64,000 bases of DNA from Eledone cirrhosa (taxonomy: Eukaryota), in NCBI GenBank assembly GCA_964016885.1, contig OZ024747.1, positions 74,338,001 through 74,402,000 of the forward strand, in the 5' to 3' direction. Positions 11,803 through 62,470 of the stretch are shown in pieces (position 1 is the first letter of the stretch; each line of letters starts with the position of its first letter). Under the pieces are notes generated by a model. It did not search any database, was not told the DNA's origin, and saw only the letters and a program-made list of their open reading frames with translations. The translations under genes and the position numbers were made by a program.

Positions 11803-11850
<48 letters not shown>

Positions 11851-11918: not shown

Positions 11919-11949
<31 letters not shown>

Positions 11950-13844: not shown

Positions 13845-13922
<78 letters not shown>

Positions 13923-17751: not shown

Positions 17752-17782
<31 letters not shown>

Positions 17783-17834
17783 GCATAGATATATACATAT
17801 ATATATATATTTATATATATATGCATAGATATAT

Positions 17835-17888
<54 letters not shown>

Positions 17889-17892
<4 letters not shown>

Positions 17893-18441: not shown

Positions 18442-19014
18442 CGGCGATGAATTAGTTTTGCGAGGTTTTTTATATGAAATCGTGTGTCGAAACAGATATT
18501 GTTATATTTGGGGAGGGTCATATTTGCGTAATATTGCCAGAATTAATAACAGAACACACTCACTGTTTGGTTGGTTTTCGCTTCTCGCTGTCTTTTATAT
18601 ATATATATCTGCGATCTAACTTACTCGGTCCTCAATGTTGCCATTGACTGACCGGCGGTCAAAAATAATACAGATACAATATAGACACAAACACATATAT
18701 ATAGTTTACATAATTTACATAAATCTTTCGTTGTACATCTGCAACATCGTCAGTGGTGTTATATTCATTGTTCCTCCTGTTGTGTTGTATGTCTATGCCA
18801 TTTTTTTTTGTTCAGTCTGTCTATATATTTATTTATTTATTTGCTTGTTTGTTTATCTTATTTTTTTTGTCTTCTTTGCGCATGCGTTTGCGTGTGTGTA
18901 TAGTGTGATGTGTGACTAGTGTGTATAGTGTTGTGTCTGCTGGGTGACTAGTGTGTGTTTATGTGCTTGTGTATGTATTTATTTATCTTATTTTATTTAA
19001 TTTTATTTACTTAT

Positions 19015-19248
19015 TTATACTTCTCTTAGGTCAGTGTTGTTTGTTTGGGTGTTGTTGTTGTTCCACTCATTCTTTCTGTTTAGCTTTGGTCTTCTAATTT
19101 CTATTTCACTGGCCTCTCTGATTTGCCTATCTGCTGGGTCATTCCTATGTTTAGATATTATTCTAATTTCTATGTTGTCTATGTTACCGTCATGTTGTTG
19201 TCTAGCATGTTCGTATAGTACTGACCCGTTTTTTCGTCCTTTTAGTTC
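19015..19248 (-). pseudogene. C-terminal fragment of Penelope GIY-YIG endonuclease (not in ORF track)
   Basis: Manual translation ELKGRKNGSVLYEHARQQHDGNIDNIEIRIISKHRNDPADRQIREASEIEIRRPKLNRKNEW...REV*; matches the PLE pattern S..H....H...R.I.EA..I....P.LN. Confidence 0.75.
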
Positions 19249-19274
19249 CCCCCAACAGGAGGAACAATGAATAT

Positions 19275-19325
19275 AACACCACTGACGATGTTGCAGATGT
19301 GCAACGAAAGATTTATGTAAATTAT
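19275..19325 (+). ncRNA. Partial hammerhead core in PLE terminal repeat (sense copy on minus strand ~18715-18760)
   Basis: CTGACGA-t-gttgca(gatg)tgcaac-GAAA; helix III/I closure not clearly retained. Confidence 0.45.
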
Positions 19326-19523
19326 GTAAACTATATATATATGTGTTTGTCTATATTGTATCTGTATTATTTTTGACCGCCAGTCAGTCAATGGCAACAT
19401 TGAGGACCGAGTAAGTTAGATCGCAGATATAAAAGACAGCGAGAAGCGAAAACCAACCAAACAGTGAGTGTGTTCTGTTATTAATTCTGGCAATATTACG
19501 CAAATATGACCCTCCCCAAATAT

Positions 19524-19561
<38 letters not shown>

Positions 19562-21476: not shown

Positions 21477-21730
21477 TTGTGTATGTTTGTGTAAATATTT
21501 ATGTTTGTATCTATCTGCCAGCCAAACTTTATGACTGTTTGTAATATGTGCATGCTGCATATATTTCTGTATATACATATATGTGTATATATGACGGTGC
21601 GTATATATCTCTGAGTGATATCTGTATATATATATATATATATATTAAAATAACAGATTAAATTTTAAGCAAAGAATCGCTGCTTTCACCCTTAACGGGA
21701 TCTTCTGAAACTAACAAAGTCAATCTGTGA

Positions 21731-22066
21731 ACTTTGGTACGCGCTCATCAGATAAAATACAGAGCTTGTTTTATAAATATTGACATATCCAGGAATGAGA
21801 CCTTAACGGTTCAAGTTACTATCCAGGTAAAACTTGAACCGTTAAGGTCTCATTCCTGGATATCTCAATATTTATGAAACAAGATCTGTATTTTATCTGA
21901 TGAGGGCGTACCAAAGTTTTGGTACCCTTGAAATATATATAATAGAATAAATATGGTTTTATAAATATAGTTTCCATTTATTAATATCATTGATATTATA
22001 CTCCAGAAAATTTGTCGAGTGCTTCGAATCTGTTATAAATATCTATTTGTTGAATTACCAACAAAT
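21731..22066 (+). mobile_element. PLE-type terminal-repeat fragment with 87-bp 5' inverted arm (21731-21817 / 21831-21917)
   Basis: Inverted arms with 13-nt spacer; contains hammerhead; homologous to 27105-27290; ends in (TA)n(TG)n. Confidence 0.75.
21889..21949 (+). ncRNA. Minimal type I hammerhead ribozyme
   Basis: tattttat-CTGATGA-gggcgtaccaaa(gt)tttggtaccctt-GAAA-tatata-TA-atagaata; 8-bp helix I, intact core. Confidence 0.8.
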
Positions 22067-22124
<58 letters not shown>

Positions 22125-27056: not shown

Positions 27057-27092
<36 letters not shown>

Positions 27093-27220
27093 AAAGTTCT
27101 ATTTAAAATTGTTGGGATACAACAAGTAAATATTTTTATAACTGATATGAAGCACTCGACAAGTATTTGGAGTAGATATACGATATTAATAAATGGAAAC
27201 TATATTTATAAAACCATATT

Positions 27221-27285
27221 TATTTCATTATACATATTTCAGGGATACCAAATTAAATTATGGTATGCCTTCATCAGACAAAATA
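27221..27285 (-). ncRNA. Minimal type I hammerhead ribozyme, homologue of 21889-21949
   Basis: Minus strand tattttgt-CTGATGA-aggcatacca(10 nt)tggtatccct-GAAA-tatgta-TA-atgaaata. Confidence 0.75.
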
Positions 27286-27508
27286 CAATATATAACAGTT
27301 TTACAAATAAGCTTTGACGTACCCTATTAAAATGCAACCATTGTTTTTGGAAGTCATATGGTTGGACTCAGGAAAAGATTTTAGACTGACCTGGACCATC
27401 GCGCGGAGACCGAATGCAATATATAATGCAAATCGTATAGCATACGATATACATCACATACAACATCCACGCTAGGATTCTGTAAATCCGAGATATATAT
27501 ATATATAT

Positions 27509-28208
27509 ATACATTTAAAGTATATGATAAACACGAAATGTGTTTACATTGCAACAGACAAAGTTAGCTATTAATGAAATAAACTAATAAAAGTGAATAC
27601 AATTTGTCTGTCTCGATACAAGTCAATAAAGACAAGATTATATTGGCAACGGCCATGATTCCTGGACATATTTAAATTTCAAAATTCAAACCTGTTCTGT
27701 AGACGAATTTGAACCTCGAAACCCAAATAAGTTTCGCAACGGTGGAATGTGAATTGAAAAATAAAGAGAATCGAAATGGAATAGAAATAAAAGAGTGAAA
27801 TGTCCAAATCTTCTGTGCTTATCAACAGGAATCCAGTAAGATTAGTCTATCTCACATCAACAATTTTGCAGGTCTGACTACACGTGGGTAGGCAGGCCAA
27901 AACTAGCTATCCCACATTCACGGTGCTAGAAATAACAGCCGCTTATGCAGGATTAAGGATCAGCTCTTACAATAAAGGAGCTATACATTATATTATATTT
28001 TGAGAATAAACTCTCAGTCGTTTACAATAATTAAGCTCCAGGAAGGGGCTCTTCCGAGCAGTTAATACATTTAAAGTATATGATAAACACGAAATGTGTT
28101 TACATTGCAACAGACAAAGTTAGCTATTAATGAGATAAACTAATAAAAGTGAATACAATTTGTCTGTCTCGATACAAGTCAATAAAGACAAGATTATATT
28201 GGCAACGG

Positions 28209-28211
<3 letters not shown>
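27509..28211 (-). mobile_element. Non-coding 556-bp unit with ~147-bp terminal redundancy, hammerhead-bearing (retrozyme/PLE-like)
   Basis: Direct repeats 27509-27655 and 28065-28211 (1 mismatch seen); (TA)n on both sides; hammerhead fold at 27657-27833. Confidence 0.75.
27657..27833 (-). ncRNA. Type I hammerhead fold with extended helix III; core mutated (TTGATAA)
   Basis: gattcctg-TTGATAA-gca...tgc-GAAAc...gTC-caggaatc; perfect 8-bp helix I; long helix III hairpin. Confidence 0.65.
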
Positions 28212-28359: not shown

Positions 28360-28452
28360 TGCTGCCTTTCATCCTTACGGGGTCGATAAAATAAGGTACC
28401 AGTAATACACTGGGTAATTGCTGGCCTTGTGCCAAAAGTAGAAACAATTATA
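28360..28452 (+). mobile_element. SINE family A 3' fragment
   Basis: GCCTTTCATCCTTACGGGGTCGATAAAAT...TTGCTGGCCTTGTGCC. Confidence 0.8.
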
Positions 28453-28862
28453 CTATTGTAGAATATAATGCCCGACGGCAAAGCTTCAACCGAATATAGA
28501 CAGATATATAGGTTGATAGCTATAGATAGTTGCTATTCTATAAATGACAATTCTAAACTTGATATGTCTAATCAACCCTCTGTTAGAGATAGGTAGGGAG
28601 GAAGATATAAAATTACTGTCACCAGAAAAATAACATGTAGTTGCCACGTGATCAAGTGTATTATTATTATATCAACATACTGTTGACTTCACAAAGCTTT
28701 GGAAAAAATTTAGCCTTGAATATATAGTTACCACACTGCAGATAACTATAAGTTGTGTTGATGAATACAAGTAAATAGATACATAAATCGGATAAAGTTC
28801 GCTGGAGAGGGACGATGTGTAGAAAGTATATAAATAGCTTCTTTATGTCAACTGTATTAAAT

Positions 28863-29430
28863 ATAATTGTTTCTAATTTTAGTACAAGGCCAACAATTTA
28901 AAAGGGAAAGGAAATTTGATTAAATCGACCCCACTGGTACTGCATTTTTTCAACCCCGAAAGTATGAAAGGTGAGATTTGAACTCAGAACGCAAAATGAC
29001 GCAAAGTAGTGTTCAATGCTCTACCTATACTGCCAATCCACCGCCCTTAAATAATGATTTTTTATTTAGGCACAAAGCAAGCAATATTTGACAGGGACTT
29101 TATTTTATCGACCCCGTAAGGAGGAAAGGAAAATCTAAGACGGCGGGATTTGAACTCAGAACGTGAAGAGACGGAACTCTATGCCACAAAGGATGTTATC
29201 CGATACTCTAAAGATTCTACTACCATTCCACCACCTCCACATTTAAATAATTGTTTCTACTATTGGCACAAGGCCAGCAATTACCCAGTACATTACTGGT
29301 TCTTTATTTTATCGACCCGGGATGAAAGGCAAAGTTGACCTCGGCGGGATTCGAACTCAGAATGGAAAGGGTCGTAACATTATGCGTCAAAGCATGACGT
29401 CCGACCCTCTACCGATACTGGCAATCCACA
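28863..29430 (-). mobile_element. Three head-to-tail SINE family A copies
   Basis: Three B-box (GAGTTCRAAT on minus strand) units with the shared tail. Confidence 0.8.
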
Positions 29431-29627
29431 TTTAAATAATACATGAACTAAAGGACCAAATACGAGAATGTACAACAATTTTTAGAAAATGAGTTTATTT
29501 TAAAAATAAACACCTACATTTGGTCACACACACACAGACAGACACACACACACACACACACACCCACATACTGTCACACAGATATGTGGGTGTATGAGTG
29601 CTTCTCTGTGTTTACTTTCAAATGATT

Positions 29628-29810
29628 AAATAATTGTTTCTACTTTTGGCTCAAGGCCACCAATCACCCAGTACATTACTGGTACTTTATTTTATCGACC
29701 CCGTAGGGATGAAAGGCAAAGTTAACCTCGGCGAGATTTGAACTCAGACCGTAAAGGGACGTAACTATGCTGGAAAGCATGGCGTCCGACTCTCTACCAA
29801 TACTGCCAAT
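29628..29810 (-). mobile_element. SINE family A copy
   Basis: A box TGGCAGTATTGG, B box GAGTTCAAATC, central and tail motifs. Confidence 0.85.
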
Positions 29811-30631
29811 TAAATAATGAAGCAACCAAATACAAAATAAGTATGTAAATAAAAGGTATCTTTCTCCTGAAAAAAAACAATATAGCAAAGACGCGATAAA
29901 CAACACAACAAAAATAATTAATGTTATATAAGAGAAAATAAAATAAATGAACGGATGGAGTAAAATGAGAAAAAAGAAATGTCGTCCATTTTTTCGACAT
30001 CGTTTTACAAAAGCTGAAAATAGAGATTATATAAAATTTAACGGTAATTCGCCATTTTTCTTCGGCGATCGGTTTCTGCATTTTTGTTAATTTCATTAAT
30101 GCTGCCATCCTAAAAATACTAAAAACGACCAGATAATATGATTTAAATCCCTCCACAGCGAGCATATCGGAAAACATTTTGTAGATTTTTAAAGCATGTT
30201 ATTTTATCTTCCATATATATATGTATATATATATATATGGGTGTGTGTGTCTGTATGTCTATGTTTATATGCCTTTCTCTCTCTCTATATATATATATAT
30301 ATGTATGTGCACATGTGTATATATATGCACATGCACATAAACATGATATCCACACACACACACATACATACACACACACACAAATACACATATATACGCA
30401 TGCATTCACATACTCACATATACAAGTGTGTGCATCTGTATGCGGGGGTGTCTACGTGTATCTTTGTGTGTTTCTATAAGCGTGCGTGTATACGTATGTG
30501 TGAGGGAGGTGTGTATGCATGTGTTTCTATGTGTGTATACATATTGACTCAGCTCCGAACATGAAATTTAATTAAGCAACAAAAACGTAATTAAAGTATT
30601 GAAAAATACTGAAAACAAATTGTAGAATTAA

Positions 30632-34679: not shown

Positions 34680-35863
34680 GTAGGTAGATAGGTAGATAGA
34701 TATTGTGAGCTTCGGTATAAAGAGAGGATAGGAAGATAAATATATATGGAGGGGTGGTTGGTGATAAGCTATACCGAATGTAGGTATGGACTTGTAGTTG
34801 TATGGGAGATATAAGGGGTGGGTGGTGATTGACGGATGAAGGAATAGTTAGTGATAAGACATGGCAAGTATAGACATAGAGGGATGTTTATAAATGGAGG
34901 ACAGAGAGGGGAATGAGACGATGATTAGAGAACGACAGGATAAACTGAGGAGGGCATGGGTTAAAGTAAGGTATAGAGAAACAACAGCTGGAGACATATC
35001 AATGGGAATGACGGAGTATGTTATAATGAAAAATGTCATCGGGAAATGTATGGACATCATGATAATGGGATCGGTGAAGTTATTGTAGCTAATTGATGGA
35101 TAGTAGAGATAAGTGAGAGTGTAGAGAGGGGGTGAAGGGGTGAGGAGGTGAGTGGGTGGTTGAGTCAGTGAGGGAGTGTGTGAGTGAGTGAGGGACTGAA
35201 TGGGTGTGTGAGGGGGAGGGGAGTGGGTGTGCGAATGGGTGTGCGAGTGAGTGAGTGTGTGACAGAGTGTGTGAGTGAGTGAGAGAGTGAGAGTGTGAGT
35301 GTGTGTGTAAATAAATGAGTGAGTGGGTGAGTGAGTGAGAGAGTGAGTGTGTGAGTGTGTGAGTGAGTGTGTTAGTAAATGAGTGAGTGAGAGAGTAAGC
35401 AAGTGAGTGAGGGGATAACACTATGTAAGACAGAGTGAGATACAAAGAAAGAGAAAGAGAGAGAGTTACCTGGACAACACACGATATGGTTAAGAGTGTC
35501 TTGCTATGGCCAGTATGTGTGTGTGTGTCTCGAAGTCTGTGTGTGTGTGTGACAGTTTCTATATATATATATGTGTGTGTGTGTGTGTCTGTGTTGTGTA
35601 CGTGTGTATGTGATTGTATATGTGTGTGTGGCTGTGTATGTATGTGTGTGTGTAAGGTGGGGGGTGAAGAAGGAATCAGCACGCGAGAAAGAATGAAAAC
35701 ACAAAATAGATAAGAAGATTATAGAGATTAGAGAGAGCAGGGTAAGATACGGGTAGCAACTTTTACCCAGAGAAAGAGTGGATGGTATATATATATATAT
35801 GCGTGTGTGTGTGTGTGTGTGTGTGTGTATAAAGTGTTTATATATTTATTTAATACCTTCTAT

Positions 35864-36287
35864 CATTACAAATATAATTATTCCTACTTTGGGCACAAGG
35901 CCAGCAATTATAACAGTGTATTACTGGTACTTTATTTTATCGACCCCCGTAAGGATAAAAGGCAAAGTTAACCTCGGCGAGATTTGAACTCAGACCATAA
36001 AGGGCCGTAACTCTATGCTGCAAAGCATGGCGTTCGACCCTCTACCGATACTGCCAATCCACCACCCTTCTACCATTACAAATATAATTGATTCTACTTT
36101 AGGCACAAGGCCAGCAATTATCCAGTGCATTACTGGTACTTTATTTTATCGACCCCGTAAGGATGAAAGGCAAAGTCAACCTCGGCGGGATTTGAACTCA
36201 GATCGTAAAGGGACGTAACTATGCTGGAAAGCATGGCGTCCGACCCTCTACCGATACTGCCAATCCACCGCCCATTACAAATATAAT
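35864..36287 (-). mobile_element. Two tandem full-length SINE family A copies with a 15-bp motif repeated at all three boundaries
   Basis: A/B boxes in both; CATTACAAATATAAT at 35864, 36074, 36273. Confidence 0.9.
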
Positions 36288-36437
36288 GTCGTTCATAAAC
36301 ACAACTATAAACGCATAAAAGAGAATAAAAAAGGGGAAAAGAGTCTTTTCCTACTATATCAATCATTAAACTAAAATATTTCTTCATTGTACTGTGTTGT
36401 TTGCCTTGTTGTTTCCGTTTATATTTTGAATATATAC

Positions 36438-36502
<65 letters not shown>

Positions 36503-36854
36503 GAGAGAGAGAGCATTAATATAATTACTATATGTTTGAAAATATTCTCTCATTGAAAGAGTGCCATTGACTATAAAGAAAGCTGGATGTTGGCCTCACG
36601 TGTCGTGATTCCCGACTCGTCAGCAAAACTATACTTTGAAATTTCAATTTTCCACACGCGTCATAAGATGTTTATTATAGAATTAAAGTTTTCCTTTGGT
36701 GGACAAGTACACGATACTTATTCATTTTGTCTCACCTTGTGGCGGAACTAGGAACTATATGGTTGTGAAACCAACTTCTTAATACACCAAACTCTGCTTG
36801 CGCCTATTGAATAATACTGCTCTTCTTGCGTATCATATACAAACTTTGGATGGC

Positions 36855-37170
36855 AGCAAATTGGCAGAGTCATTAGACCGTCGGATAGACTTCTTTGCTG
36901 TATTCGTTTAGGCTCTCTGCTTTTTGAGTTCAAATCCCGCCGAGGTCAACTTTATGTTTCATCTATTCGAGGTCGATAAAAAATTATCACTCAAGTATTG
37001 GAGTTGATTCTTCCTGTATATCTGCTTCGCACTTCCATTATCTCACTCTCTCTGACCTTCTCTGGGAGAAATCAGCTGTCTGCAGACCTGGAGAGGAGAT
37101 GGAATTCTCCAAGTTTTAATAGAATATTCTAGAAACGCCGTATATCAATGCGGAGGTCCTACAACTCACA
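36855..37170 (+). mobile_element. SINE with family A head and alternative CT-rich 3' module (family B)
   Basis: GAGTTCAAATCCCGCCGAGGTCAAC head then ...GGAGAAAT...AGACCTGGAGAGG...GAAACGCCGTAT tail. Confidence 0.7.
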
Positions 37171-37638
37171 CATGAGTTACGGCACCATACAAACTCGTAC
37201 ATACAAATTTTCGATTTCTAAGGCTTCATTCATTAATAAAATATGTTGACACCACTTTCACGCCATTTAATTGGGCTCAGAATTATGTAAAATCTAAATA
37301 ATTCTAGTTTCTTCGTTTAACAACTTTATTCAATTAGAGAAACGTTCGCTGACAAAATCGTTGCATTAATGTAAAACAACACTTCCGTTGATAATTCTGA
37401 AGAAAGCAGATATATATCCGGTTTTGTAACCGCCTAATTTATTTTAATTTAGGTTTTTTAATGCTCCATGTAGTAAATATACTAGCATCGAGTAATTTAG
37501 TTTGATGTAAACAGATCTAATGGAGTTGCCTAGTGGTCAGAGTATTGAATTTACGGCCATAATCTCGTGGGTTCGATTCCTGGATTGAGATGCATGTTGT
37601 GCTCTTGAATGTGCTGGGGCATGTGTGTCTGTCAGTGC

Positions 37639-37679
<41 letters not shown>

Positions 37680-38329
37680 TATTTTCCGTGTGTTTGTGAT
37701 GCCTAAGCGTGTGTATATGAACGTGTACATATATGTGTGCGTGTCTGTTTGTATGTGTTTTGTGTATGTGTGTGTGTTTGTGTATATGCATGTGTATGTA
37801 TGTGTATGTGTGTGTGTGTGGGCGTGGTTTTTTGCCATTGACTTGTTGAAGAATAAGTAAATAGTTCATATTTTTCTAGAGTTACAAGAAAGTAAATGTT
37901 GAAAGATATGTGAACTTGCCTTTTATAAATCTGTCTAAATGTTAACATTAGAATTAGAAGCCACCTCCTCCCACAAAAAAACTTGTCATTTAAAGGGAAC
38001 ATTCTTTTCTTATAATGGAATCCCCTGACTGTATCTGGTATTTATTTATAAGGACTTTTAACATATTTACTCGAGAAAAACCAAAAAGCTAAATAGAAAT
38101 AAAAAATAAAATGATGTTAAGAAAAAACGACGTTCATCATTGCTTAATATTATCTGAATTATTTTGATGATTATGGAAGATAACTCCAGATAACTATCAG
38201 TAGTATTTCCCATAATGCTGGCTTAATACCGGTGAAAGAAACGTTAAGTAAATCTACAAGAATGTACGGTTTTGGCGTGGAAAAATAGAAATACTTAGAG
38301 AATACATTACTCTTAGACACTAACTGTTA

Positions 38330-38641
38330 AGGCTCTTTATGGTCAGAGTTCAAATGCCGCCGAGGTTAACTTTGCCTTTCATCCTTACGGGATCGATAAA
38401 ATAAAGTACTAGTAATACACTGGGATAATTGGTGGCCTTGTGCCCAAAGTAGAAACAATTAATATATTTAAATAGTGCAGTAAGCTGGCACAATTGATAG
38501 AGTATTAACCAACATGACTTGCAATATATTTTCCAGCTCTCTACCACCTGAGTTCAAATCCTACAACGAGCTTCTTTGCCTTTCATCTATTCGAGTTAAT
38601 ACCAGTCACGTACTTCCTCTATGTCTCTTTCTCACTTCCAT

Positions 38642-39162: not shown

Positions 39163-39851
39163 ATATAAAGTTTAATTAATTATGCTGCCAAAAGTATAAC
39201 TGCCATGCAAATAAAACTAATTATTTCAGCTATATTCTGCATCCTGCTTAACAAAAATAGTGATGCTATAAAAAGATTCGTTTGCTGAAAGAATCATAGA
39301 TATAATTATCTTCGGATGAGGAGACAATAATCTCTGAAATGCACAAGGGGGAATTTCACAGCGAGGCTTCTAATTAAAAAACTGTAGCTATATCTACATT
39401 AAGTGTACTTTAACCTTCTCATATACGCCATGTTCTAGCATCAGTATTTATATTGTTATAAATCACTATGTCACCACAATGTAAAGTGGACGATAGATAG
39501 AGAATAAATTGAAGGCAACAAAAATGTAGGTGTGTCACCTGTTATTTTATTTACCTGTCGTAACTTTCAAATAGTTTTATACTCTAACAATGCACCAAGC
39601 AAACTGAAACACCCTCTTATCATTTTATATATTTTTATGTTGTAGTTATACTTTTCGTTTTAATTTAACTAGTTAATCGTATTTCTTAAGGTGTGCTTGG
39701 CTGGTTCAGTCTTGTACTTTGGTTTTGAGTAGGGTCGTATAAGAAACATTTACATATTTCGAATCATGCCCATGCTATTGTCGAGAGTAAGAACCTCATT
39801 GAAAGGTCTCTACTATTACTATGAACAGGGGTTTTTTTTGGGGGGGGGGGT

Positions 39852-40125
39852 GACATACGGCGTTTCTAGGGCATTTTAAAACCTGGCGGAACCCATCTCC
39901 TCTCGAGGTCTGAAAACAGTAGATTTCCTCCAGAATAGAGAGTAAGTGAAAGAATGGCAGTGAGAAAGAGATATAGCGGAAGAAGCTACCCCAGTACTAA
40001 ACTGGTATTTTTTTTTTAACCTTGAATTGTTGAAAGGCGAAGTTGACCTTGACGGGATTTGAACTCAGACAGCAGAGGGCGGAAACAAATACCGAAAAGT
40101 ATTCTATCTGACAATTCGCTGCCTA
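39852..40125 (-). mobile_element. SINE family B copy
   Basis: Reverse complement of family B head and tail. Confidence 0.7.
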
Positions 40126-40794
40126 GAATTAAGTACTTAGTGCATTTCAGAGGTTTGCCCTTTCAATTAGTATTACAGTATATCCGATGAACTTCCAAAT
40201 AGTTTTGTTCACAAGTCTATCCAAGACTAAGGTTAATAAGACTGCGTCAAGATGCCACGCATTCGGATCGAACCTGGGACCTAATGATTTCAAAACTAAT
40301 TCATTAATCATTCGTCATTGCTGCGTCCACTTAAAACTGAGGAAGCAGTTAAAGAGGAAAATAAGTCATACAAACGAAGCAGTATAAGAAGTGTGATTGA
40401 ATGGGTATTCGAATATAAGTTGTCGACTCTAACTTAAAACATTGACGAGATAACATTTGATATTCACATTTCCCATCTTTTATTTCGATTTTAATCTAAT
40501 TAATATAATCTTTCACGGCTTCTATTAATGATTTTCTTCGAATTATTTTTCGTTTCGTTTTTTCTTTTTTTCTTCCTTGTTTCGGATATATATATATATA
40601 TATGAATGAAGTTAATATGTCCAAGGATACTAAGTACCCCTAGAAATACATAGGTTGTCTATGATTCAAGGTTGTTCAATGGTATTAATTTGATATACCA
40701 GAACTTTAATATTAAGATAAGCAGAACAAGTAAAATTCAACCAATTTTTTAAAATAAATAAAAAAATATAATATAAATATTTACCTCTTCTAAT

Positions 40795-40878
40795 GGCCCT
40801 TACTGATCAGTTTCGCTTTGTAAAACCCCGGAAATCCGATGGATATCTGATGGAAAACCAAAACTCATCAGAGAAGCA
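40795..40878 (-). ncRNA. Type I hammerhead ribozyme candidate
   Basis: tgcttct-CTGATGA-gttttg...caaagc-GAAA-ctgatcag-TA-agggcc; palindromic helix III, GUA triplet. Confidence 0.7.
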
Positions 40879-41441
40879 TTTTCCTTTCTTAGGGCTAAAA
40901 GACAAAGGAAAGATAAACTATATGACTTCCTGCCAGCTAATACAGGTCTGAAAGGTCGTGAAAGTGACCCGTATGTAAACCGGTCTGCAATAAAAGCGGG
41001 AAACCACAGACTTGCTGTCTATAATTACTACTAAAAAAATAGCAACTAAATAGAACAACAGATTTGTTCTCTACATAACGGAGAATAATGAATGAAGTTA
41101 ATATGTCCAAGGATACTAAGTACCCCTAGAAATACATAGGTTGTCTATGATTCAAGGTTGTTCAATGGTATTAATTTGATATACCAGAACTTTAATATTA
41201 AGATAAGCAGAACAAGTAAAATTCAACCAATTTTTTTAAATAAATTATGTAGAGAACAAATCTGTTCTATTTAGCTGCTATTTTTTTAGTAGTAATTATA
41301 GACAGCAAGTCTGTGGTTTCCCGCTTTTACTTCAGACCGGTTTACATACGGGTCACTTTCACGACCTTTCAGACCTGTATTAGCTGGCAGGAGGTCATAT
41401 ATTTTATCGTTCCTGGGTCTTTTAGCCCTAGGAAAGGAAAA

Positions 41442-41525
41442 TGCTTCTCTGATGAGATTTGGTTTTCCATCAGATATCCATCGGATTTCCGGGGTTTTAT
41501 AAAGCGAAACTGATCAGTAAGGGCG
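41442..41525 (+). ncRNA. Type I hammerhead ribozyme candidate (inverted copy)
   Basis: tgcttct-CTGATGA-gatttg...taaagc-GAAA-ctgatcag-TA-agggcg. Confidence 0.65.
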
Positions 41526-41793
41526 ATTAGAAGAGGTAAATATTTATATTTTATATTATATTTTTTAATTTAATTAAAAAAATTGGTTGAATTTTACTTG
41601 TTCTGCTTATCTTAATATATATTATATATATATATATGTATATATATGTATATATATATATATTATATATATATAATCAGTAGACGATTAAACTATTTAT
41701 ATATATTTATATATGTATATATATATATGTATATATATTATATATATATAATCAGTAGACGATTAAACTATATATATATATTTATATATATAT

Positions 41794-42369
41794 ATGGTGG
41801 CTGCCAACTCGTTTTCGAGTACGGCCACTACTTTATATCCATGTAGGAGAACCCCTACCGATGCGTTGAACGAGTGTGACTTTTTAGTCTAGCCTGCGAC
41901 ATGAAAACTCTGGTACAAACACTACACTTGTGACAATTATTGACACATAGTGCTGGGCCCATGGTACCATGTGACGACAAGTGCAGAGAGATCTCCAGAT
42001 ATAAAGCAATGCCTGTGCCGTGAAGCTTTTATAGTGAGCAAAGGCACTGCACAAAGCCAGTCCTACTCTCTTAACCAAGATGATATTTACCAAAAAGAAG
42101 AACAAGTTAACATCATTGGATACCAGCAGGGTTGCAGGTGTTATATCAGAGTTTTCCTTCTCCTAGAATTCTGCCTTGACAAAGGCTAAGGGGTCATCTC
42201 TCCCGGTGATTTTGGATGGCCATTGACTCTTAAGAGCTCCTTTGCCCTTTGACAGGTTTTGTTTTTAGTCCTGCAGGATGTCCAAAGTCACCCTCCTCAC
42301 CAAGAAACCTTGGTGGGGTTGCCAGTTTAGTCGCCAACGACCCGACCATGGGACAGGTTGTACTGGGAT
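41794..42369 (-). mobile_element. Non-autonomous RTE-derived element, apparently full length (~575 bp)
   Basis: RTE 5'UTR-like motif CTAGGAGAAGGAAAACTCTGA; 3' end GGCCGTACTCGAAAACGAGTTGGCAGCCACCAT similar to LINE 3' end; other copies at 17889, 52661, 7895. Confidence 0.75.
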
Positions 42370-42811: not shown

Positions 42812-45103
42812 CTAACAGTGCTGCGATCGAATGTGGCTTTTTAGCCCAGCCAATGATCTAAAATGTCTTGCACAGAGTCGGCAACCAAAACTTTTACTGG
42901 GAATAGTCGGCTGTGGTTGGAGTTCGTGTACTTTTGCATGTCGTTTGAGCCCTCCTGCTGATTTACATTCTCTACCACATGTTTGGCAAGCATGATGAGT
43001 AGCATCTCCAACAGCAGCCTGGTAGTCAACCACTGGTCTTACTTTATGACTGCGAAGATGACTTTCGAGTCCAGCTTTGCTTAGGCAGAGTCTCGCACAG
43101 ACGCTGCATGTCAGCACCATAGGAGGACCCTCGCCGTCTGGAAGTGCAACAGCAATGCCCTTCCTCACGTCCCGCTTTACTTTCTCGTGTGCGATTCGAG
43201 ATGCCTCAAAGGCAACTTTTCCTTCATATACAGTTTTTTTCCATTTATTACGATCAGCAGCAACATTTTCCCATGTATCAGCAGAGATGTTAGCGTCTTT
43301 CAGAGAGGCTTTCAAGGAATCCTTATACCTCTTTTTTGGTTTATGTGGCGGTCGTTTTCCTTTAACCAACTCTCCATAGAAGAGTTGTTTTGGTATTCTA
43401 GAAACCTTCATCCTGGCAAGGTGACCACTCCAACGGAGTCATTGCTTAAGCACAAGAGCTTCTATACTGTCACACATAGAGCTTTCCAAAATCTCGACAT
43501 CACTGATGTGGTCCCTCCAGTGAACGCCATGGATCCGTCTGAGACACATCTGATGGAAACGCCCCAATTGCTTAAGGTGGTGTCGATATGTGACCCAGGT
43601 CTCGCAGGCATAAAGAAGACAAGAGAGCACACATGCCTTGTACACCTTTACCTTTGTCCTCCTGCATATGTCTCGCCGACCCCAGAGTCGCTTTTCTAGC
43701 TTTCCGAAAGCATCACTTGCTTTCCTAATCCTAAGTGAGATTTCACTGTCAAGGTTGCCGTATCGATTGACAGTGCTTCCCAGGTAGACAAACTGATCAA
43801 CCACTCCAAGTCGTTTGACATACACATAGATGTTTGGTTCAGTGTACTGCTTACTAGGGGCAGGTTGGTACATGACGACGGTTTTCTTGAGACTGACAGT
43901 CAAACCCAGGGCAGTGCAAGCGTCAGAAAATGCATTCAAAATGTGCTGCATATCACTCTCTGTGTGCGCTACAAGATCGCAATCATCTGCATACAAGAGG
44001 TCTCTTATGATTGATGTAAACACCTTTGTCTTCGCAGCAAAGCGCCTGATGTTAAATATGCTGCCTGAGGTTCGATATCGGATGTAAACACCATGCTCGC
44101 AATTCCTGAATGCAATACAGAAAACCATTGCAAAGTATATGGCAAACAGGGTCGGTGCTGGAATATCCCCCTGTTTCACTCCATTTTTTACTGAGATAGG
44201 CTCCGACATGTTACCTCCGACATTAACCCAAGCCTTCATGTCGTCATGGAAAGACCTAACTAAAGCAAGGAACTTATCAGGGCAACCAAGTTTCTGGAGA
44301 ACCTTCCATAATGCATCTCTGTTGACAGTATCGAAAGCTTTTGTCAGATCGACAAAAACCTGATACAGATCCAAGCCTTGTTCAATGCACTTCTCCTGGA
44401 GCTGTCTAGCTGAGAAGATCATATCAGTAGTGCCGCGTCCATCACGAAAACCAGATTGACTTTCAGGAAGAACACAATCTGCAGTGTGTGTCAGCAGACG
44501 GTCCAGAAGCACCCTACATAAAACTTTCCCTACGACAGAAAGCAATGATATACCTCTGTAGTTCCCACAATCATTCCTGTTACCCTTTTCCTTGTACAAG
44601 ACCACCATTACTGCATCTCTCCAGTCCTCAGGTACGGATTCATTAGCCCATATCCTTCCAAACAAAGAGTGCAGATGTTGCAGGAGTCTCTCACCACCAT
44701 ATTGTAGGAGCTCAGCATGTATGCCATCCATACCTGGAGATATTCCACTGTTCAGCTTCGAAATAGCCACTGCAACCTCCACAAGCGTCGGAGGTTCTGC
44801 GAGAGCTACTTTCACAGGACTTTCTGGAATGAGATTGAGGAAATCTTCACTGACGACAGACGGCTGATTCAAAAGATCATCAAAGTGCTCTCGCCACCTT
44901 CGTAGAATTCCCTGTGAGTCACGAAGAAGTTCTTTGCCATCCTTGCTGCGAAGCGGTGTCACTAGAGAAGAAGACGGTCCATAAACCTCACGCAAGAGAC
45001 TGTACAACAGCTTTGTGTTATTGGAATCAGACGCAGTTTGTATCTCACCAGCCTTCTCACTCCACCACTGATCCTTCATCTGAGAAAGACTCCGCCTAAC
45101 ACG
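42812..45103 (-). pseudogene. RTE ORF 3' part: reverse transcriptase plus three C-terminal C2H2 zinc fingers; one in-frame stop at 43439
   Basis: NYRGISLLS, LPESQSGFR, FVDLTKAFDTV, GVKQG, LLYADD, FVYLGS, KQ*LRWSGH (TGA probably from CGA); CxxC...HxxxH x3. Confidence 0.93.
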
Positions 45104-46200
45104 TGATTGGCTGCTGGAACGTACGGACGCTGCTTGACAGGGATTCCTTGGAGCGTCCTGAACGAAGGACCGCTCTTGTTGCAAAGGAGCTTCGACGTTA
45201 CGATCTTGACATCGTGGCTTTATCTGAGACGAGGTTAGCTGGAGATGGTCATCTTACGGAATTTTGTGGAGAATATACATTCTTCTGGAAAGGAAGAGAT
45301 GAAGGAACCAGAAGAGAGGCTGGGGTAGGATTTGCTGTTAAGACTGTACTTGTGAATAAATTAGAAGAATTCCCAGTAGGGATTAGTGAGCGTCTTATGT
45401 CCATGAGAGTTCCGCTGGACAAAGGAAGATATGCTACCCTGGTGAATGTGTATGCTCCAACTATGAATTCTGTCGATGAAGAAAAACTGTCCTTTTACCA
45501 TGCCTTGAAAGGTGTTCTAAGAAATATCCCTCAGGCAGACAAAGTCATCGTGTTTGGTGACTTTAATGCTAGAGTGGGTAGGGATTTTAACACATGGAAT
45601 GTAATCGGAAGGCATGGGGTGGGAAAGTGTAACAGCAATGGTTTTCTCCTGCTGCAGATGTGTGAGGAGCTGGATCTGTGTGTTACCAACACCATGTTCC
45701 AACAAAAGAACAAATTCAAGACCACATGGATGCATCCTGCATCTAAGGAATGGCATCTTTTGGACTACGTCCTAGTCAGGATGCGTGACAGACAGGATGT
45801 GCAGTGTGTTCGTGTTCTTCGTGGAGCTGAGTGCTGGACGGTCCACCGCCTGGTACGCGCAAAAGTGAAACTAATCACCAAACGTAAAATCCGGGCTCCT
45901 GGTGTTGCCCTGCCCAAAAGATTGAATGCTGCTCGTCTTAAGGATAAAAATGTGAAGAGGACATTGGAAGAAGAGATGCAGGCTGCAGATCTTAGTGAGG
46001 ATTGGCCGACCCTTAAAAAGTCGGTTTATGATGTAGGCAGGCGTGTTCTGGGATTGGTGCAGAGAAAACATCAGGACTGGTTTTATGATGTACATATAGA
46101 AGACTTGTTGGCTGATAAGAGGCGCGCTCTGTCACGCTACTTGACGGCAAAACCACAGGAGAGGAATACGTTGCATGAGGAGCTCAGGGATGTAAAATGT
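45103..46200 (+). pseudogene. RTE ORF 5' part: APE-type endonuclease plus linker, inverted
   Basis: IGCWNVRTL, DIVALSETRL, GVGF, VYAPT, GDFNARVG, LDYVL, TVHRLV (SDH-equivalent); ends LRDVKC at (TA)n. Confidence 0.93.
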
Positions 46201-46246
<46 letters not shown>

Positions 46247-46559
46247 CATCTATATATGTGTGTGGGTGCATATATATATATATGTGTGTGTGTGTGTCTG
46301 TTCCTTTATAAATGATTCTTTAAATCATTGAACTACAAAAGCTGTCTGCGATTTATGTGTGTGTGCGTGTGTATTGGTGTGTGGTGTGTGTGTGAATGTG
46401 TTTGAGTTTGAGTGGCTGAGTGTGTGTGTGCCTATGTGTGAGTATATCCAGAATTTCATAACTATTAACAAAATACAACAACCAGAAACACCAAGTTATT
46501 AATTTTACTGTAAAAGGAATAAACAAAGGCATGGATGTACATGTGTGAGTATATATTAG

Positions 46560-46726
46560 TAATAATTGTTTCTACTTTTGGCACAAGGCTAGCAATTACT
46601 CAGTACATTACTGGTACTTTATTTTATCGACCTCGTAAGGATGAAAGGGAAACTAAGATCGTAAAGGGATGTAACTATGCTGGAAAGCATGTCCGACCCT
46701 CCACCGATACTGCCAATTCACCGCGC
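46560..46726 (-). mobile_element. SINE family A copy with internal deletion
   Basis: Tail and central motif present, B box deleted. Confidence 0.75.
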
Positions 46727-46944
46727 TATCAGTAATAATACATATTCTTATGATTTAAGTTCAAATCCGTACTTTGCCTTTCATTGATCAAAGGGCCGCT
46801 ATAATTATCTCTATTTCACTCCAAAATCACTGGTGTTGTGCCTATGTTTAAAACAATTATCACAATTTAAAGGCCTTTGCCGTTCATTCTAGTACTGTTG
46901 ATAAAATAATGTAGTAGGCAGCGGATTAAAACTTGGTATTCTTT

Positions 46945-47295
46945 CTGAGTTCAAATCTCGCCAAGTTCAACTTTGCCATTAATCCTTTTGAAGTCGATAA
47001 AGTACCTGTCCAGTACTGTAATTGGATATTCCACCCACCCCCTCTCTCTCTCACATACACACACACTCTCTCTCTCTCGCTCGCTCGTGCGCTCTCTCTC
47101 CCTCTCGGTCTCTGGAAGAAATCTCTCTCACTCACTTCTCTCTCCCTCTCGGTCTCTGGAAGAAATCTCTCTCACTCACTTCTCTCTCCCTCTCGGTCTC
47201 TGGAAGAAATCATGTACGTTTTGTCCTGGAGAGAGACGGGCTCCACCAGGTTTTAAAAACCCATGACATGCCGTGTATCAGGATGGTGACCCTGT
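46945..47295 (+). mobile_element. SINE family B copy with internal 44-bp triplication
   Basis: CTCTCCCTCTCGGTCTCTGGAAGAAAT x3. Confidence 0.7.
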
Positions 47296-47799
47296 GATGC
47301 TACCAAGAGTTAAGTGACCTTTACTTTTAATTTATTTACCAGTCATATACTGAGGTCGATATTATCGACTTAAAAAAAGTTGTTTATGTTCTTCCTCCTC
47401 CTTCCAGAACCCCTAATTAATGTTATTAAAGTGTTTGCCCCCAAACTTCAGATATTGCTTATTTTCATTTTTTAATTCTAATATTCTACTAGTTGAGTTG
47501 CTTTTATGTGCCTCTACATTAATCTTGTCAGTTGTTCACTACCTTTGCTCCTTTGCTGTCTTTCATATTGGCTCACTTTTAATTTAGTTTTATGGCTACT
47601 GATCATGGAGATATGTTTTGCAAATTTTCGTTAGTTATTTTTTCAGTTCCACTTAACTTCTATTTATTCACCTTTTCCAGGTAGTTTTTTTTATCTTTAT
47701 CCTAATGTAAAGCCTTTTTACACAGTTTCACGCATTTATAGTTTACAGTTTATTGGTACCTCATAAATAAAGATAATATTTTCTATATTATAAATCCTT

Positions 47800-49800
47800 T
47801 TATAGGTACTTCTCAACATTGTTGCAATTCTACGATCATTACTTTCTAAGAGCTTTCTATGTGTATCAAGTCTATAGCTGCCTGTGAATGTAATAGGTAT
47901 TATCTTATTACATTCAGAAGTACCGACTCTGTCTCTAGTGAATAGTATTATATTTTCTAGCTGCTATTTATTTCTAGTTATAATACTGAAGCTGTAGTTT
48001 ATAACGGGGATATTTAGTGCATCTGTTTATCTCTCGTTTTTACCTATATAAGACTGCTATTCAACTCGAATTTTTAATATTAATCTGATTCACATGCAAT
48101 AACCATTTCCTCGTTATTTTCTTTTATATCTCATATCTGCAGATCTGATCCATTTCATCTTGTTCCAAGTACTTATATCGATGGTTCTCTTCTCAGTCTT
48201 TGATTCTTTCAATCTAAATATCCTTTGACGTTACATTTTCGGTTTTAATTAACTTGTCTATTTTTAGACTATCTTTGGCACATTTTTCACCCTCAACTAA
48301 GTTTAGTTTCAGTTAATTTTATGTACGTCATTTGGTTATTTAGCTGCCTGGTGTTTTTTTTGTATATAGTGTTAATTCATGCATATAGAGGAGATGATTT
48401 ATAGGACAAAATTAACATTTGATACTTATCTTGTTACTTTCGTTAAAAGTTACGTTGCAGCTCCTATGGTGATGATATATTACATCAATATTAATGACTA
48501 TTTTACAATTTATCAAATAATTTAAAATTAAAAGTACAAGTTGTTGTTATCACGACCCTTTCAGAACTAACCGCGGCTCAATTATTCGGTAGATTGGCAA
48601 TATCGTTAGAGAGTCGGACACCATGCTTTGTAGCATAGAGTTACGTCCCTTTATGATCTGAGTTCAAATCCCGCCGTGGTTAACTCTGCCTTTCATCCTT
48701 ACGGGGTCGATAAAATAAAGTACCAGTAATGTACTTGCTGGCCTTGTGCCGAAATTAGAAACAATTATTGTCAAGCATCTCTGGTTCATAGTCTGCAGCT
48801 CAGTTTGTGTCAGGAATCGCTAGTCCATAGTTTGCGGCTCAACTTGTGTCAGGAATCACTGGTTCATAGTTTGCCCACAAGATGTATAATAATCATTCAA
48901 GATTTGATTCAGTATATTTGATATCAGATTTATGTATATTGATATGAATTTTTTTTTTGTGGTTGTTTAACTACAGATCATTGACCAACCCGTTTTTACC
49001 AGTATCGCTTTCCTATTTTCAAACAGTAGAGAGTAATTTATGTGACATTTGGTTGTTATTCATAGAAGGGGGAGCAACCAAAGAAAAACTCCTACATTGA
49101 CTCGTTTCAGAAAAGCAGTGTTTAAACGGAGGGCCTATCATTCCGCTCAAAATATATATTCTATGTCAGGCTTTGGTGTTGTATTCTTATTTCTTTATTG
49201 TAGCATTCTAGATGTTTTCCATTTTAACGTTGTTGATATACTTAGTATTGGAACCGATTTGTTTATGTACAGTGTCTCCAGATGTGGGTTATGTTGTTGA
49301 AAGGGTTTTTTGAGGTAATCAATCCATGCCTTGCTGAGTGATGTTTTTCTTCTTTGTATTTGCTTTATAACTGCTCGTCTTACATATATATGTTCTTTAC
49401 ATCCATATATCCACTTTTGACACCATTCTTGTTCCTCTGGTAAGATATTATTTTCATCCAGATGAGAAACCAATATGCTGGAGAGTAAAGATGCCAGTTG
49501 GTAAATATATTATTGGTGTGTAATTTTAGGAAGAATTAATATTGTTTTCACGAGTCGTGTTGTTTCTGCTCACTTTAGTAACGTTTTGAATGTTGTTACA
49601 ACCGTCCCATGTATAGTTACTAAATACATAATTAGAAATTACGGCTTTTATCATTCCCGGCAGAGAAACAGTTTCTGTTTTCATTATGTTAACTTCCTCC
49701 ACTGGTCATACTGGACCATACATGGATTGTTATTGTCTTTTTATTGTCACTTTCTCTTCAATTACACTTCCTTATATTTGTTCTATATTTAGTTTGCCTC
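47800..49800 (-). pseudogene. Fossil non-LTR RT of R4/NeSL-like (RLE-type) element, interrupted by a SINE
   Basis: NCFSAGNDKSRNF*, HLDENNILPEEQ..C.K..YGCKE, AWIDY.K, YKYLEQDE, ALNIPVINYSFSII in the expected order. Confidence 0.65.
48585..48770 (+). mobile_element. SINE family A copy
   Basis: A/B boxes, central motif, tail. Confidence 0.85.
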
Positions 49801-49889
49801 TACTCTCTTAGTATAATTGGATTTTTTGTCTTATTCTTATATCTTCATTCCAATCCAATGTCTCTTTTGTTGTTGTTATATCAGCATGA

Positions 49890-50190
49890 AGATAATTGAA
49901 CGATTCGTAAGAGCATTAGATTATATGCCTCTGTATTTGTTCCGTCACGGCGCTCTCAGTTCAAATCTCACCGAGGTCAACTTTGCCTTTCATCCTTTCG
50001 AGGTCTATAGAAAAGTATCAGTTTAGTATTGCGGTCGATTCTTCCTCTATAACTCTAACTCACTTCCTCTCCGTCACTTTCTGGAAGGAATCTCCTGTAC
50101 TCAGACCTAGAATGGATTGGTTCCGCCAGGCTTAAAATGCCCAAGAATCGTCGTATGTCAATATGGCGTCCATACGACACCATTAGGAGT
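49890..50190 (+). mobile_element. SINE family B copy
   Basis: Head plus alternative tail. Confidence 0.7.
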
Positions 50191-53687: not shown

Positions 53688-54289
53688 GACTTCTACAGGA
53701 CTAGAACTGTTTCATTCGAAGGAAATGATGGGAGATGTATACCTTATATTATATTATATAGCATTGTGTATATCATGTTATATTATATAATATTATATTA
53801 TATTATATAGAAACCATTATATTATATTCCAATTATATTTCTTCGTATATTTGCAGCTACATTATCATATTTTTATCCTGTTAGAGAAACAAAATATGAT
53901 ACGATATTGATTTTCTTTCCTTTTCACTCCCTTCTGTCCTCTCTTGTTAAAATTTTAAATCAGCGTGAAAGCTCACATAATACAAAATACAAGACAGATA
54001 TTTCTACATAGTTATTAGTCACCCTGGCTAATATTTAACTTAAAATCGTTTTAGTGAATATTGTATTTATTTATAAAGTAACTATCTGTTTCTTGAAGTT
54101 GTTGTTCTTATTTTCTAGAAGGACCTGCAATGGGCAGATGGTATCAACAATGGAGAGATAAGAGGGAAATATAATTTCCTTGGTCCGACCTGATGATCGG
54201 TTTCCTTCTTGTTTAACACTTCTCTCTAACCAAATGTGTTTTAGCCCTGTCCATATATTTTATTCAAACGTAGTATAGAACAACGATAG

Positions 54290-54590
54290 GCGGCACATTA
54301 GTAGAGTCGTTAGAACGTCAGACAGAATGCTTTGCGTTATTCATTTCGGCTCTCTACTTTCTGAGTTCAAATCTCGCGGAGGTCAACTTTGCTTCTCATT
54401 CACTGAAGGTCAATAGAAAATACCAGTCCAGTACTGGGGTTGATATATCTTTTTCTCACTTCCATTCTCTCATTCTCTCTATTCTTCTTTGGAAGAAATT
54501 TACTGTATTCAGATCTAGGGAGGAGATGGGACCTGCCAGGTTTTAAAATGCCCTGGAAACGCTTTATGTGAATATGGCGCCTCAATAACC
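54290..54590 (+). mobile_element. SINE family B copy
   Basis: Head plus alternative tail. Confidence 0.7.
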
Positions 54591-55275
54591 CCCACCACCC
54601 AGGATTTATAGGACCATGCATGCAAGATTGAAAAGCAAAGTCGATCTCGACAGAATATGAATTCAGAAGGCAGACAGCCAGAAGAAATACCTCAAGGAAT
54701 TTTGTCTATCCCTGCCCCCTCAGTTTACCACATTAGCTATCTGTCCTTGCACCCTCAGATTACCTCATTAGCTCTCTAATTTAACTATTTATTTTAGAAA
54801 TTAATAACTATAGTTATCTAGTGTGAAAATTATATCGTTTTAGCATTTACCATTTTTCGTCAAATTATCAAAGCGAAACTATATATTTTAGAACATTAAA
54901 CCGTAGATAATGCATTAAACATTAGCTTTATGGAATATAATATCTTTAAATAAACATATATTTAATTAGGTAAAATTATTTAAGCATATCAGAAACGAAA
55001 TAATCTCATTCAATTTGTTAATTGTTTAATTTCCTACAATTCTTGAGATCAAATTCTGCTACAGACATTTTATTTTATCCTTTTTTTTTCTCGTTTCTTT
55101 ATGTGTAGTTTCAGTTCCCTTAGCTGAGGGAAATATATCCCAAATTATCTAGGATTTTAACTCGAAAATTACTGAACATCATTCAATGGAATATTACTTA
55201 TTGCTTCACCTAAAAAATATAAAACTTAAGCTTAGTACTAAAGAAATAACTTCTAGAGCTACGGCAAACACACAT

Positions 55276-60764: not shown

Positions 60765-61404
60765 TGGGGGGGGGGGGGTGTACAACATAGATGTATATAT
60801 ATATGAACTCCCACACATAAGTACATACACACACACACATATATACATATATATGTAAACTCATATTTTATTCGTGTTTTGTTTTTTAATACTTTGGTAG
60901 GAATATCATGCAGTTTATTTGGAACTGCAAAGTTCTTATGACCAATTTTTCTAGAACATTTTAGTCAAACATTCCACGATCAAATGAAGTCGACATATAG
61001 TGACGTCTCTTTATATACCGGATGTTTACAGAAACCAAATTAGCTGACAATTAGCTTCTTCTGATGGGACACACAGCTTTGTGTGTATATGGAATATAGA
61101 AAGGATATTTACAATTAACAGTACAAATTATGAAACTATCAGTACCATGTCTACTTGTGTTGTGGATTGGTTTATGTGTGATTCTCTGCTCTCTGAGTTC
61201 AAATCCCGCTGAGGTCAACTTCCATCCTCTCGAGGTCGATAAAAAAGTACCAGTCTAGTACTGGAGTCGATTCTTCCTCTAGATAGATGATAATCAAAAC
61301 GAGAATGTAGTTTATGGTACACCCAAATGATTTAGAAGTCAACCTTAAGTAGGAACAATAATATTAAGAAAGACATGAACGACACCACATGATTTTGTAT
61401 TGAA

Positions 61405-61715
61405 AATTTTGAAAGTAGGTTTATAAGTATGAATTTCCACAAGATTTTCGTAGTTGTCTCTGTGGCCTAGTGGTAGGTGCTAGAGACGGGAAAGTTCCTG
61501 GTCTTGGGTTCAATCCTGGTCAATAGGTAAGCGTAACCTTTTTGCAGTTTTTATTTTACAACCAATAGAAAAAAACTGAAAAGAATTACCGAGAACCCTA
61601 CCAGGATCGAACTTCAGACCAGATCACCATCGTCTGTGACTCCCCCCAACTAGGCCGCTGAGAGAGCTACAGCAGTATAACGAAAATGGATAATTATAAA
61701 CCTACTTTCCAAATT
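61405..61715. mobile_element. Inverted-repeat element containing two convergent tRNA-like Pol III cassettes
   Basis: 26-bp terminal inverted repeats (2 mismatches); A box GGCCTAGT and B box GTTCRATCC on each strand, T-runs between. Confidence 0.55.
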
Positions 61716-62169
61716 AAAGTTAAAAAGATGTCCCGACTAGGATCGAACTTCAGACCAGGATCACCATCGTGATGTATGTTTAAAAACGTAAGGGAAGTAG
61801 AATTTCGGAGCAAGTGAAAAGTGAAAAGTTGACCTCAGCGGGATTTGAACTGAGAGAGTAGAGAGTCGAAACAGATATCGCAAAGAATTCTATCTGACGT
61901 TTTAATAACTCAGCTCATTTGCCACCTGGCTCCACTTTCATATTTCAACGAAGAATCTTAAATGTTAAATCGATACAATTTTCACGCCAAATAATTATAG
62001 TTATTAGTTTTTAGATAAAATTTCATTTTGATGGTTAATGTGTTAATCTGAAGGTGCAGGACAAACATAAATCCTTGCTGTGTATTTCGTCTGGATTTCC
62101 GCCTTCTGAATTCAAATTCTGTCGGGATTATCTTAGCTTTTCACTCTTATATGGTGCCGTAAATCCCGA

Positions 62170-62470
62170 GGGCGTCGTAGCGGGGCCGTAGTGACATACA
62201 GCATTTCTATGGCATCTTATAAACCTGACGGAGCCCAGCTTCTCTCCGGCTCAAAAACAGTAGATTTTTTCAGAGAAGGATAGAAAGTGAGAGAATGGAA
62301 GTGAAGAAGAGATATAGAGGAGAAATCGAACCCAGTACTAGATTTTTTTATCGACTGGATAAAAGTCAAAGTTGACCTCGGTGAGATTTACTCAGGAAGA
62401 AGAGAGATGAAACTAATATCGCAAAGCATTCTCTCCGACGTTTTAACAACTCTGCTAATTCACCACCATA
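62170..62470 (-). mobile_element. SINE family B copy
   Basis: Homologous to 39852-40125. Confidence 0.7.

Follow-up and report, generated by a model that had tools for sequence, protein, structure and literature searches.

The closest described counterparts of the locus reported here are the complex insertions of Penelope-like elements (PLEs). As laid out in the insertion-structure passages of PMC8557442, PLE insertions are partial tandems truncated at the 5' end, where they often bear, immediately adjacent, an inverted copy that is itself 5'-truncated; one end has a tail, hammerheads occur in canonical PLEs within the pLTRs, and (TA)n is a preferred target. In head-to-head units, as treated in PMC3846280, a single target-site duplication surrounds the whole unit, and the Discussion of that paper proposes self-priming for palindromic joints. 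How the tandem and inverted ends form is stated to be undefined in the corresponding part of PMC8557442. In the in vitro work given in PMC11167929, the purified PLE protein cuts and extends both strands of AT-rich DNA and starts inside its RNA, hammerhead cleavage being unnecessary; the protein is a predicted dimer. A second point of comparison is provided by the animal retrozymes, which derive from pLTRs and which, as active non-LTR retrozymes, need two consecutive units with complete hammerheads (as defined in bioRxiv 10.64898/2026.07.22.740005); type I motifs can cleave as dimers, according to the section of PMC6155905 that deals with them. Finally, siRNAs matching inverted Penelope repeats have been reported in Drosophila (PMC3681739, in its part on such repeats).

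We analyzed a 64,000-nucleotide stretch of the Eledone cirrhosa genome (GenBank assembly GCA_964016885.1, contig OZ024747.1, positions 74,338,001 to 74,402,000 of the forward strand), referred to here as the window, in whose coordinates all positions are given. The insertion under study, at 40602-41618, and its immediate surroundings consist of the following parts.

40586..40603, no strand: (AT)9 run, read from the sequence, that borders the insertion on the left (3'); its last two bases are common with the element
40602..40759, minus strand: repeat R, copy A, the 3' end of the leftward arm; extends 107 nt past the inverted-arm end
40640..40784, minus strand: candidate retained intron just after the hammerhead, suggested by a motif scan (donor-like GT at 40784, acceptor-like AG ending at 40640)
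40760..41087, minus strand: unique part U, which makes up 328 of the 486 bp in a period; non-coding by the searches made
40792..40880, minus strand: direct-arm hammerhead motif (type I); the core begins at 40871, and cleavage is predicted 3' of 40801
41088..41245, minus strand: repeat R, copy B, the 5'-truncated upstream copy making the partial tandem; ends 41 nt before the next predicted cut site
41245..41247, no strand: head-to-head junction, 1 to 3 nt of microhomology
41245..41618, plus strand: inverted 5'-truncated copy C; starts 9 to 10 nt inside U and ends 51 nt into R
41440..41528, plus strand: inverted-arm hammerhead motif (type I); the core begins at 41449, and cleavage is predicted 3' of 41519
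41619..41795, no strand: AT microsatellite at the right (3') end; it contains, at 41622-41795, a 75-bp internal duplication with a short non-repetitive core
41796..42123, minus strand: right flank, a probable LINE 3' end, 95% like 17891-18218

The two copies of R (40602-40759 and 41088-41245; 158 bp, period 486) are identical at 157 of 158 positions, and the inverted copy (374 bp) matches 40709-41078 at 93.4%, with 15 substitutions over 367 columns, 5 of them transitions, and two indels (7 nt and 3 nt); both the near-identical direct repeats and the adjoining, diverged inverted copy of about 370 bp described in a first-pass annotation were therefore borne out. The inverted copy overlaps the second direct repeat by 1 nt, or by 3 nt when the repeat is compared with the inverted copy. 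Read in sense orientation, the insertion runs from the inverted copy through the junction to R, U, R, and (AT)n, and both of its outer ends adjoin AT microsatellite. It comprises 1.33 periods of 486 bp with one hammerhead per orientation, which upholds the period of the previously proposed 486-bp monomer and only suggests that the unit is a monomer. Assemblies are known to have difficulty with complex PLE insertions (PMC8557442, where assembly is discussed), and such a locus might be mimicked by a chimeric read of the fold-back type or by the joining of two haplotypes in opposite orientation. We nevertheless regard an artefact as the least probable of the explanations weighed here, hardly to be credited, since the arms end at different points and run into different flanks, their differences are mostly substitutions (15, versus 2 indels), the 64-kb window contains no N, and three other head-to-head elements are found in it.

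With the orientation of the arms taken from the strand of their hammerheads, the insertion shows a pLTR-forming partial tandem, an adjacent head-to-head inverted 5'-truncated copy, a hammerhead in the repeat region, and a (TA)n target. In these traits, as well as in having one end longer than the other and a microhomology junction, it is like the complex insertions of endonuclease-bearing PLEs (Penelope/Poseidon, Neptune, and Naiad, as portrayed in PMC8557442, and Pen2a_Av, as portrayed in PMC3846280). Unlike them, it has neither RT nor GIY-YIG coding sequence, one arm exceeds the other by 107 nt rather than by the 30 to 40 bp of the published PLE tail, the junction is not palindromic, and the arms are 4% apart; the passages of those papers on PLE insertions give no arm-divergence figures. 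The layout itself, presented as striking at first pass, is not: it is the typical PLE insertion structure as set out in both papers and recurs in the window. We are highly confident of a PLE-type origin of the insertion, with a tie to an autonomous family that is one of architecture only. In summary, the insertion is largely ordinary, non-coding, and of known PLE layout, the divergence of its arms being its one unusual point.

With the non-LTR (animal) retrozymes, as characterized in bioRxiv 10.64898/2026.07.22.740005 and in the relevant part of PMC6155905, it has in common a non-coding unit of a few hundred bases, a type I hammerhead, tandem repetition, and derivation from PLE pLTRs. It departs from them in having 1.33 units, a single hammerhead per orientation, and an inverted arm in addition, and an active non-LTR retrozyme, with its two consecutive units, was rejected as a candidate on the number of its units and hammerheads.

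The hammerhead cores lie at 40871 (minus strand) and 41449 (plus strand), with sense strands that point away from the junction, i.e., head to head. A purpose-written type I descriptor found four matches on the two strands of the window (40871-, 41449+, 21897+, and 27277-) and none in any of the simulated windows (0 matches in 40/40). Conserved core and stems I, II, and III occur in type I order in both arms, more weakly in the inverted one. While the motif of the direct arm has 8 of 9 pairs in stem I, 6 of 6 in stem II, and a 10-nt palindromic stem III, that of the inverted arm has 7 of 9 pairs in stem I and 5 of 6 in stem II, where there is an A-G mismatch and one G-C pair has turned into G-U. 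The three substitutions within the hammerhead helices all (3/3) make the inverted copy weaker, a pattern that points to their origin on the inverted side. Correspondingly, an imposed hammerhead fold scores -12.0 kcal/mol for the direct arm versus -3.5 for the inverted arm; the lowest-energy monomer folds reach -23.5 and -21.5 kcal/mol, placing the hammerhead fold 11.5 and 18.0 kcal/mol above them, respectively, and the palindromic stem III of the direct arm self-pairs as a dimer at -13.6 kcal/mol. From sequence and folding model, the motif of the inverted arm thus appears decayed, with its core nucleotides intact; of the core that had been called intact in each orientation, the nucleotides hold up and three helix pairs of the inverted copy are lost or weakened. 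No Rfam hammerhead family was matched at gathering level in the window or at E ≤ 10 around the locus, where the only matches at that threshold were four of AT repeats to microRNA models, and because of this we call both arms hammerhead motifs, not Rfam members. Hammerhead-motif scans of metagenome contigs, prokaryote genomes, and viral contigs gave 0 matches, as expected for an animal repeat.

The insertion is a truncated or non-autonomous PLE-type insertion that encodes nothing detectable. Neither a telomerase-like RT nor a GIY-YIG ORF, the pair that marks an autonomous PLE, is present in it. A Pfam scan gave no match for those of its ORFs that were scanned and revealed no PLE or host-exon family among the 145 window ORFs scanned (145 of 162 selected by complexity and GC from 632 of at least 45 aa, covering ORFs outside 42.8 to 46.4 kb and clear of 40700-40800). 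Atlas returned a best score of 0.79 for the insertion's ORFs, for one sense-strand ORF, and tblastn with the 37 proteins related to a GIY-YIG-like fragment nearby (see below) produced no match in the insertion. A long open frame on the plus strand of U was rejected as coding, having no Pfam match and lying antisense to the hammerhead.

That fragment belongs to a neighboring element, 18496-19531, a 5'-truncated PLE of the same head-to-head layout, whose inverted arm (19253-19531) shows 2 substitutions over 277 columns; a core-like motif at 18753(-) failed the strict hammerhead descriptor. Between its arms lies a GIY-YIG-like C-terminus (19260-19018, minus strand) with 37 relatives at E ≤ 0.001 (best, 3e-11), found by a full HMMER search and missed by Pfam and by a word-index search of the fragment. 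Among the 19 relatives scanned, 5 match Pfam GIY-YIG, 3 of them above the cut-off, and, judging from the clade description in PMC8557442, their upstream cysteine motif resembles a Neptune-type linker. Since this sister element carries the GIY-YIG-like fragment, the layout goes with PLE coding sequence in this genome, and a link to RT/GIY-YIG, raised as a possibility at first pass, holds for the neighbor, in GIY-YIG-like form, and not for the insertion at 40602-41618 itself, which has no coding match.

Further elements of this kind were seen in the window. A perfect head-to-head palindrome, 17184-17611, lies between AT runs, with 0 substitutions over 213 columns, one 2-nt indel, and a longer tail on one arm; a hammerhead-core-like motif at its center failed the strict descriptor. 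This palindrome is compatible with fold-back self-priming. Another hammerhead family is represented by 21647-22067 and 27090-27487, which are 82% alike and contain the descriptor matches 21897+ and 27277-; within the former, 21730-21918 is an inverted pair with 4/88 differences and a 13-nt spacer, and the inverted arm of the element is cut short in stem II, beyond which the sequence is unrelated. A second partial tandem, 27509-28211, has 147-bp direct repeats with a period of 556, 1 difference, and AT runs on both sides; no hammerhead core was found in it.

The comparison of arms with direct repeats that had been suggested at first pass yields a divergence of 4.1% for the arms (95% interval, 2.3 to 6.7) versus 0.6% for the direct repeats (0.02 to 3.5), with intervals that overlap. 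By Fisher's test, 15/367 in the arms against 1/158 in the direct repeats gives a p of 0.048, and 12/304 against 1/158 gives a p of 0.042; when the ambiguous junction base is counted (12/304 against 2/160), p becomes 0.153. With indels counted as events, p is 0.025, or 0.066 with the junction base. The other PLE-like repeat pairs in the window show 0/213, 2/277, 1/147, and 4/88 differences; pooled with the direct repeats, they amount to 8/883 (p = 0.0003 against the arms), or to 4/795 without the 21.7-kb pair, a control that mixes elements of unknown ages and does not date the insertion at 40602-41618. Over the 51 nt common to all three copies, pairwise differences number only 1, 1, and 2, a point against two templates. 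As judged from these counts, the arms were likely, but not demonstrably, copied from two non-identical RNAs rather than by fold-back self-priming, the former being favored only marginally; the two RNA templates in one event invoked at first pass accordingly persist as the likeliest reading, with support that is marginal (p = 0.042; p = 0.153 with the junction base). Our literature search, which covered few subscription papers, found no two-template account of PLE inversions.

We put at slightly better than even the chance that the insertion arose in a single event, in which a Penelope-type protein acting in trans primed the reverse transcription of two non-identical RNAs, using both microsatellite strands. 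In such an event, a GIY-YIG nuclease would nick both strands within the AT run. The leftward cDNA would start at 40602 and extend over 644 nt (R-U-R), either on an RNA that is tandem or circular or through re-entry at the same start site; with R-U-R copied in one event, the two copies of R would be born identical. The rightward cDNA would be made on a second RNA, one more decayed, with its start 107 nt deeper inside and a length of 374 nt, and the two 5'-truncated ends would then join head to head via 1 to 3 nt of microhomology, likely leaving a dead-on-arrival copy. Helix substitutions that weaken only the inverted copy are as expected from a different, decayed source, and a single event with two non-identical RNAs best fits the both-strand extension, internal start, and predicted dimer given for the purified protein in PMC11167929.

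What further counts against two RNAs is that the inverted arm begins no more than 10 nt from the R/U boundary: U has its 5' end at 41087 and the inverted arm at the equivalent of 41078, almost the same point, which is what a palindrome with R placed at its center would show. This near-coincidence is not explained by a circular or tandem template and would suit a later duplication of R into the center of a palindrome. It therefore speaks for one template followed by ageing, i.e., for arms born identical, by fold-back self-priming or twin priming, that drifted to 4%; the second copy of R would then be younger (a local duplication or repair filler at an unstable palindrome center), homogenized, or near-identical by chance. 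Self-priming is, moreover, the published proposal for head-to-head PLE junctions (PMC3846280, in its Discussion), the window does hold a perfect palindromic element (0/213), and the contrast in rate between arms and direct repeats is marginal. Yet copy B starts exactly at the base of the element/(AT)n boundary, for which a filler made at the DNA level has no reason, and all of the helix-breaking changes (3/3, albeit a small number) are on one arm. Taken together, we consider descent from one template unlikely, although with an appreciable share of the probability.

An older first insertion would also account for decay being restricted to one arm, and in that respect the restriction counts against an event with two RNAs. 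Two successive insertions would require that an older, decayed copy in the AT tail was later adjoined, in the opposite direction, by a younger copy of the same family, with deletion of the intervening AT. Several PLE-like families do pile into the same AT runs (the palindrome ends at 17611 and a relative of the insertion begins at about 17633). However, one family must have inserted twice where at least four families use AT runs in the window, and in the opposite orientation, and no AT may remain at the junction; in addition, the published head-to-head units have one target-site duplication around the whole unit (those of PMC3846280). We therefore think such a succession quite improbable and keep to a single event with two RNAs as the preferred reading.

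With regard to transcription across the locus, the folding model predicts a hairpin for read-through RNA of either strand, held by 354 arm-to-arm pairs (about -630 kcal/mol) and including perfect helices of 66 to 69 bp, and the hairpin of about 370 bp that had been proposed for read-through RNA is in this sense upheld as a prediction. Such a duplex would bury or trap the one sense hammerhead in each transcript. No trace of A-to-G editing was found between the arms: of the 15 differences, read on the RNA-sense strand, 2 are A/G and 2 are T/C, so the bias for which a check had been proposed is absent. Like the siRNA-yielding inverted-repeat Penelope copies of Drosophila, the insertion is an extended inverted repeat whose read-through RNA could become double-stranded, although in its case transcription is hypothetical (comparison with the pertinent part of PMC3681739); since that paper already reports siRNAs matching such Penelope repeats, the idea of an siRNA hairpin is not new. 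This precedent, together with the predicted 354-pair duplex and its perfect helices of up to 69 bp, might suggest a functional hairpin locus, retained by the host as an siRNA source or editing substrate. We judge this very unlikely, as any young inverted repeat folds in this way, the mismatches are without compensation, A-to-G bias is absent (2/15), and no host exon was seen among the 145 ORFs scanned.

By itself, the insertion at 40602-41618 matters little, being one more decaying PLE-type insertion, and its value is that of a pointer. We tentatively speculate, at somewhat less than even probability, that PLE head-to-head insertions fall into two mechanistic classes separable by genome sequence: perfect palindromes with identical arms, made by fold-back self-priming (17184-17611), and non-palindromic joints with arms derived from two different source loci (this insertion and perhaps 21730-21918), the product of a PLE protein that acts as a dimer with two bound RNAs. 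If so, each non-palindromic insertion would record a pair of co-packaged RNAs, and the origin of PLE inverted ends could be tested by genome-wide variant counts; arms carrying variants of two subfamilies would exclude self-priming for such insertions and support two RNAs per event.

A few observations concern the surroundings of the insertion and its relatives. The 3' part of the insertion has a diverged relative at 17640-17740 (14 substitutions over 95 columns), which ends about where the inverted arm does in the alignment and keeps, at the aligned place, the donor-like GT that follows the hammerhead. Retention of an intron would add another PLE trait, for which 40784-40640 is a candidate only. 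At about 17633-18218, a relative of the 3' part is followed by an AT run and then by a probable LINE 3' end, as at 41796-42123 (95%), and this repeated pairing of families is likely due to the AT tail of the LINE being the target. The flank at 41796-42123 has a weak C2H2 match below the cut-off (E = 0.0013) and a 30-nt match of 87% near the end of an RT-bearing LINE. That at 42812-46311, which we take to be RTE-like, has its RT and C2H2 fingers in minus-strand orientation but its AP-endonuclease part on the plus strand, where this part starts at the joint and ends in microsatellite; with the contiguity of its two parts judged by eye, the LINE looks like a twin-priming 5' inversion, the apparent case spanning 43439-46311. 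Classical twin priming involves one RNA, of which adjoining rather than homologous segments are copied. The insertion at 40602-41618 is like such 5' inversions of LINEs in its two presumed primings on opposite strands and its head-to-head joint with microhomology but differs from them in that its inverted arm re-copies the same sequence, 4% different. Elsewhere in the window, positions 1-13900 are occupied by long low-complexity tandem arrays (periods of 39, 29, 33, and 56, as well as trinucleotides) with long Thr-rich open frames, and dispersed short repeats of one or two families, in many copies 70 to 94% alike, were seen at 16176-16398, 28362-29811, 35856-38471, and 39850-40112, with further sites of the same one or two families at 46557-50186, 54286-54873, and 61183-62467.
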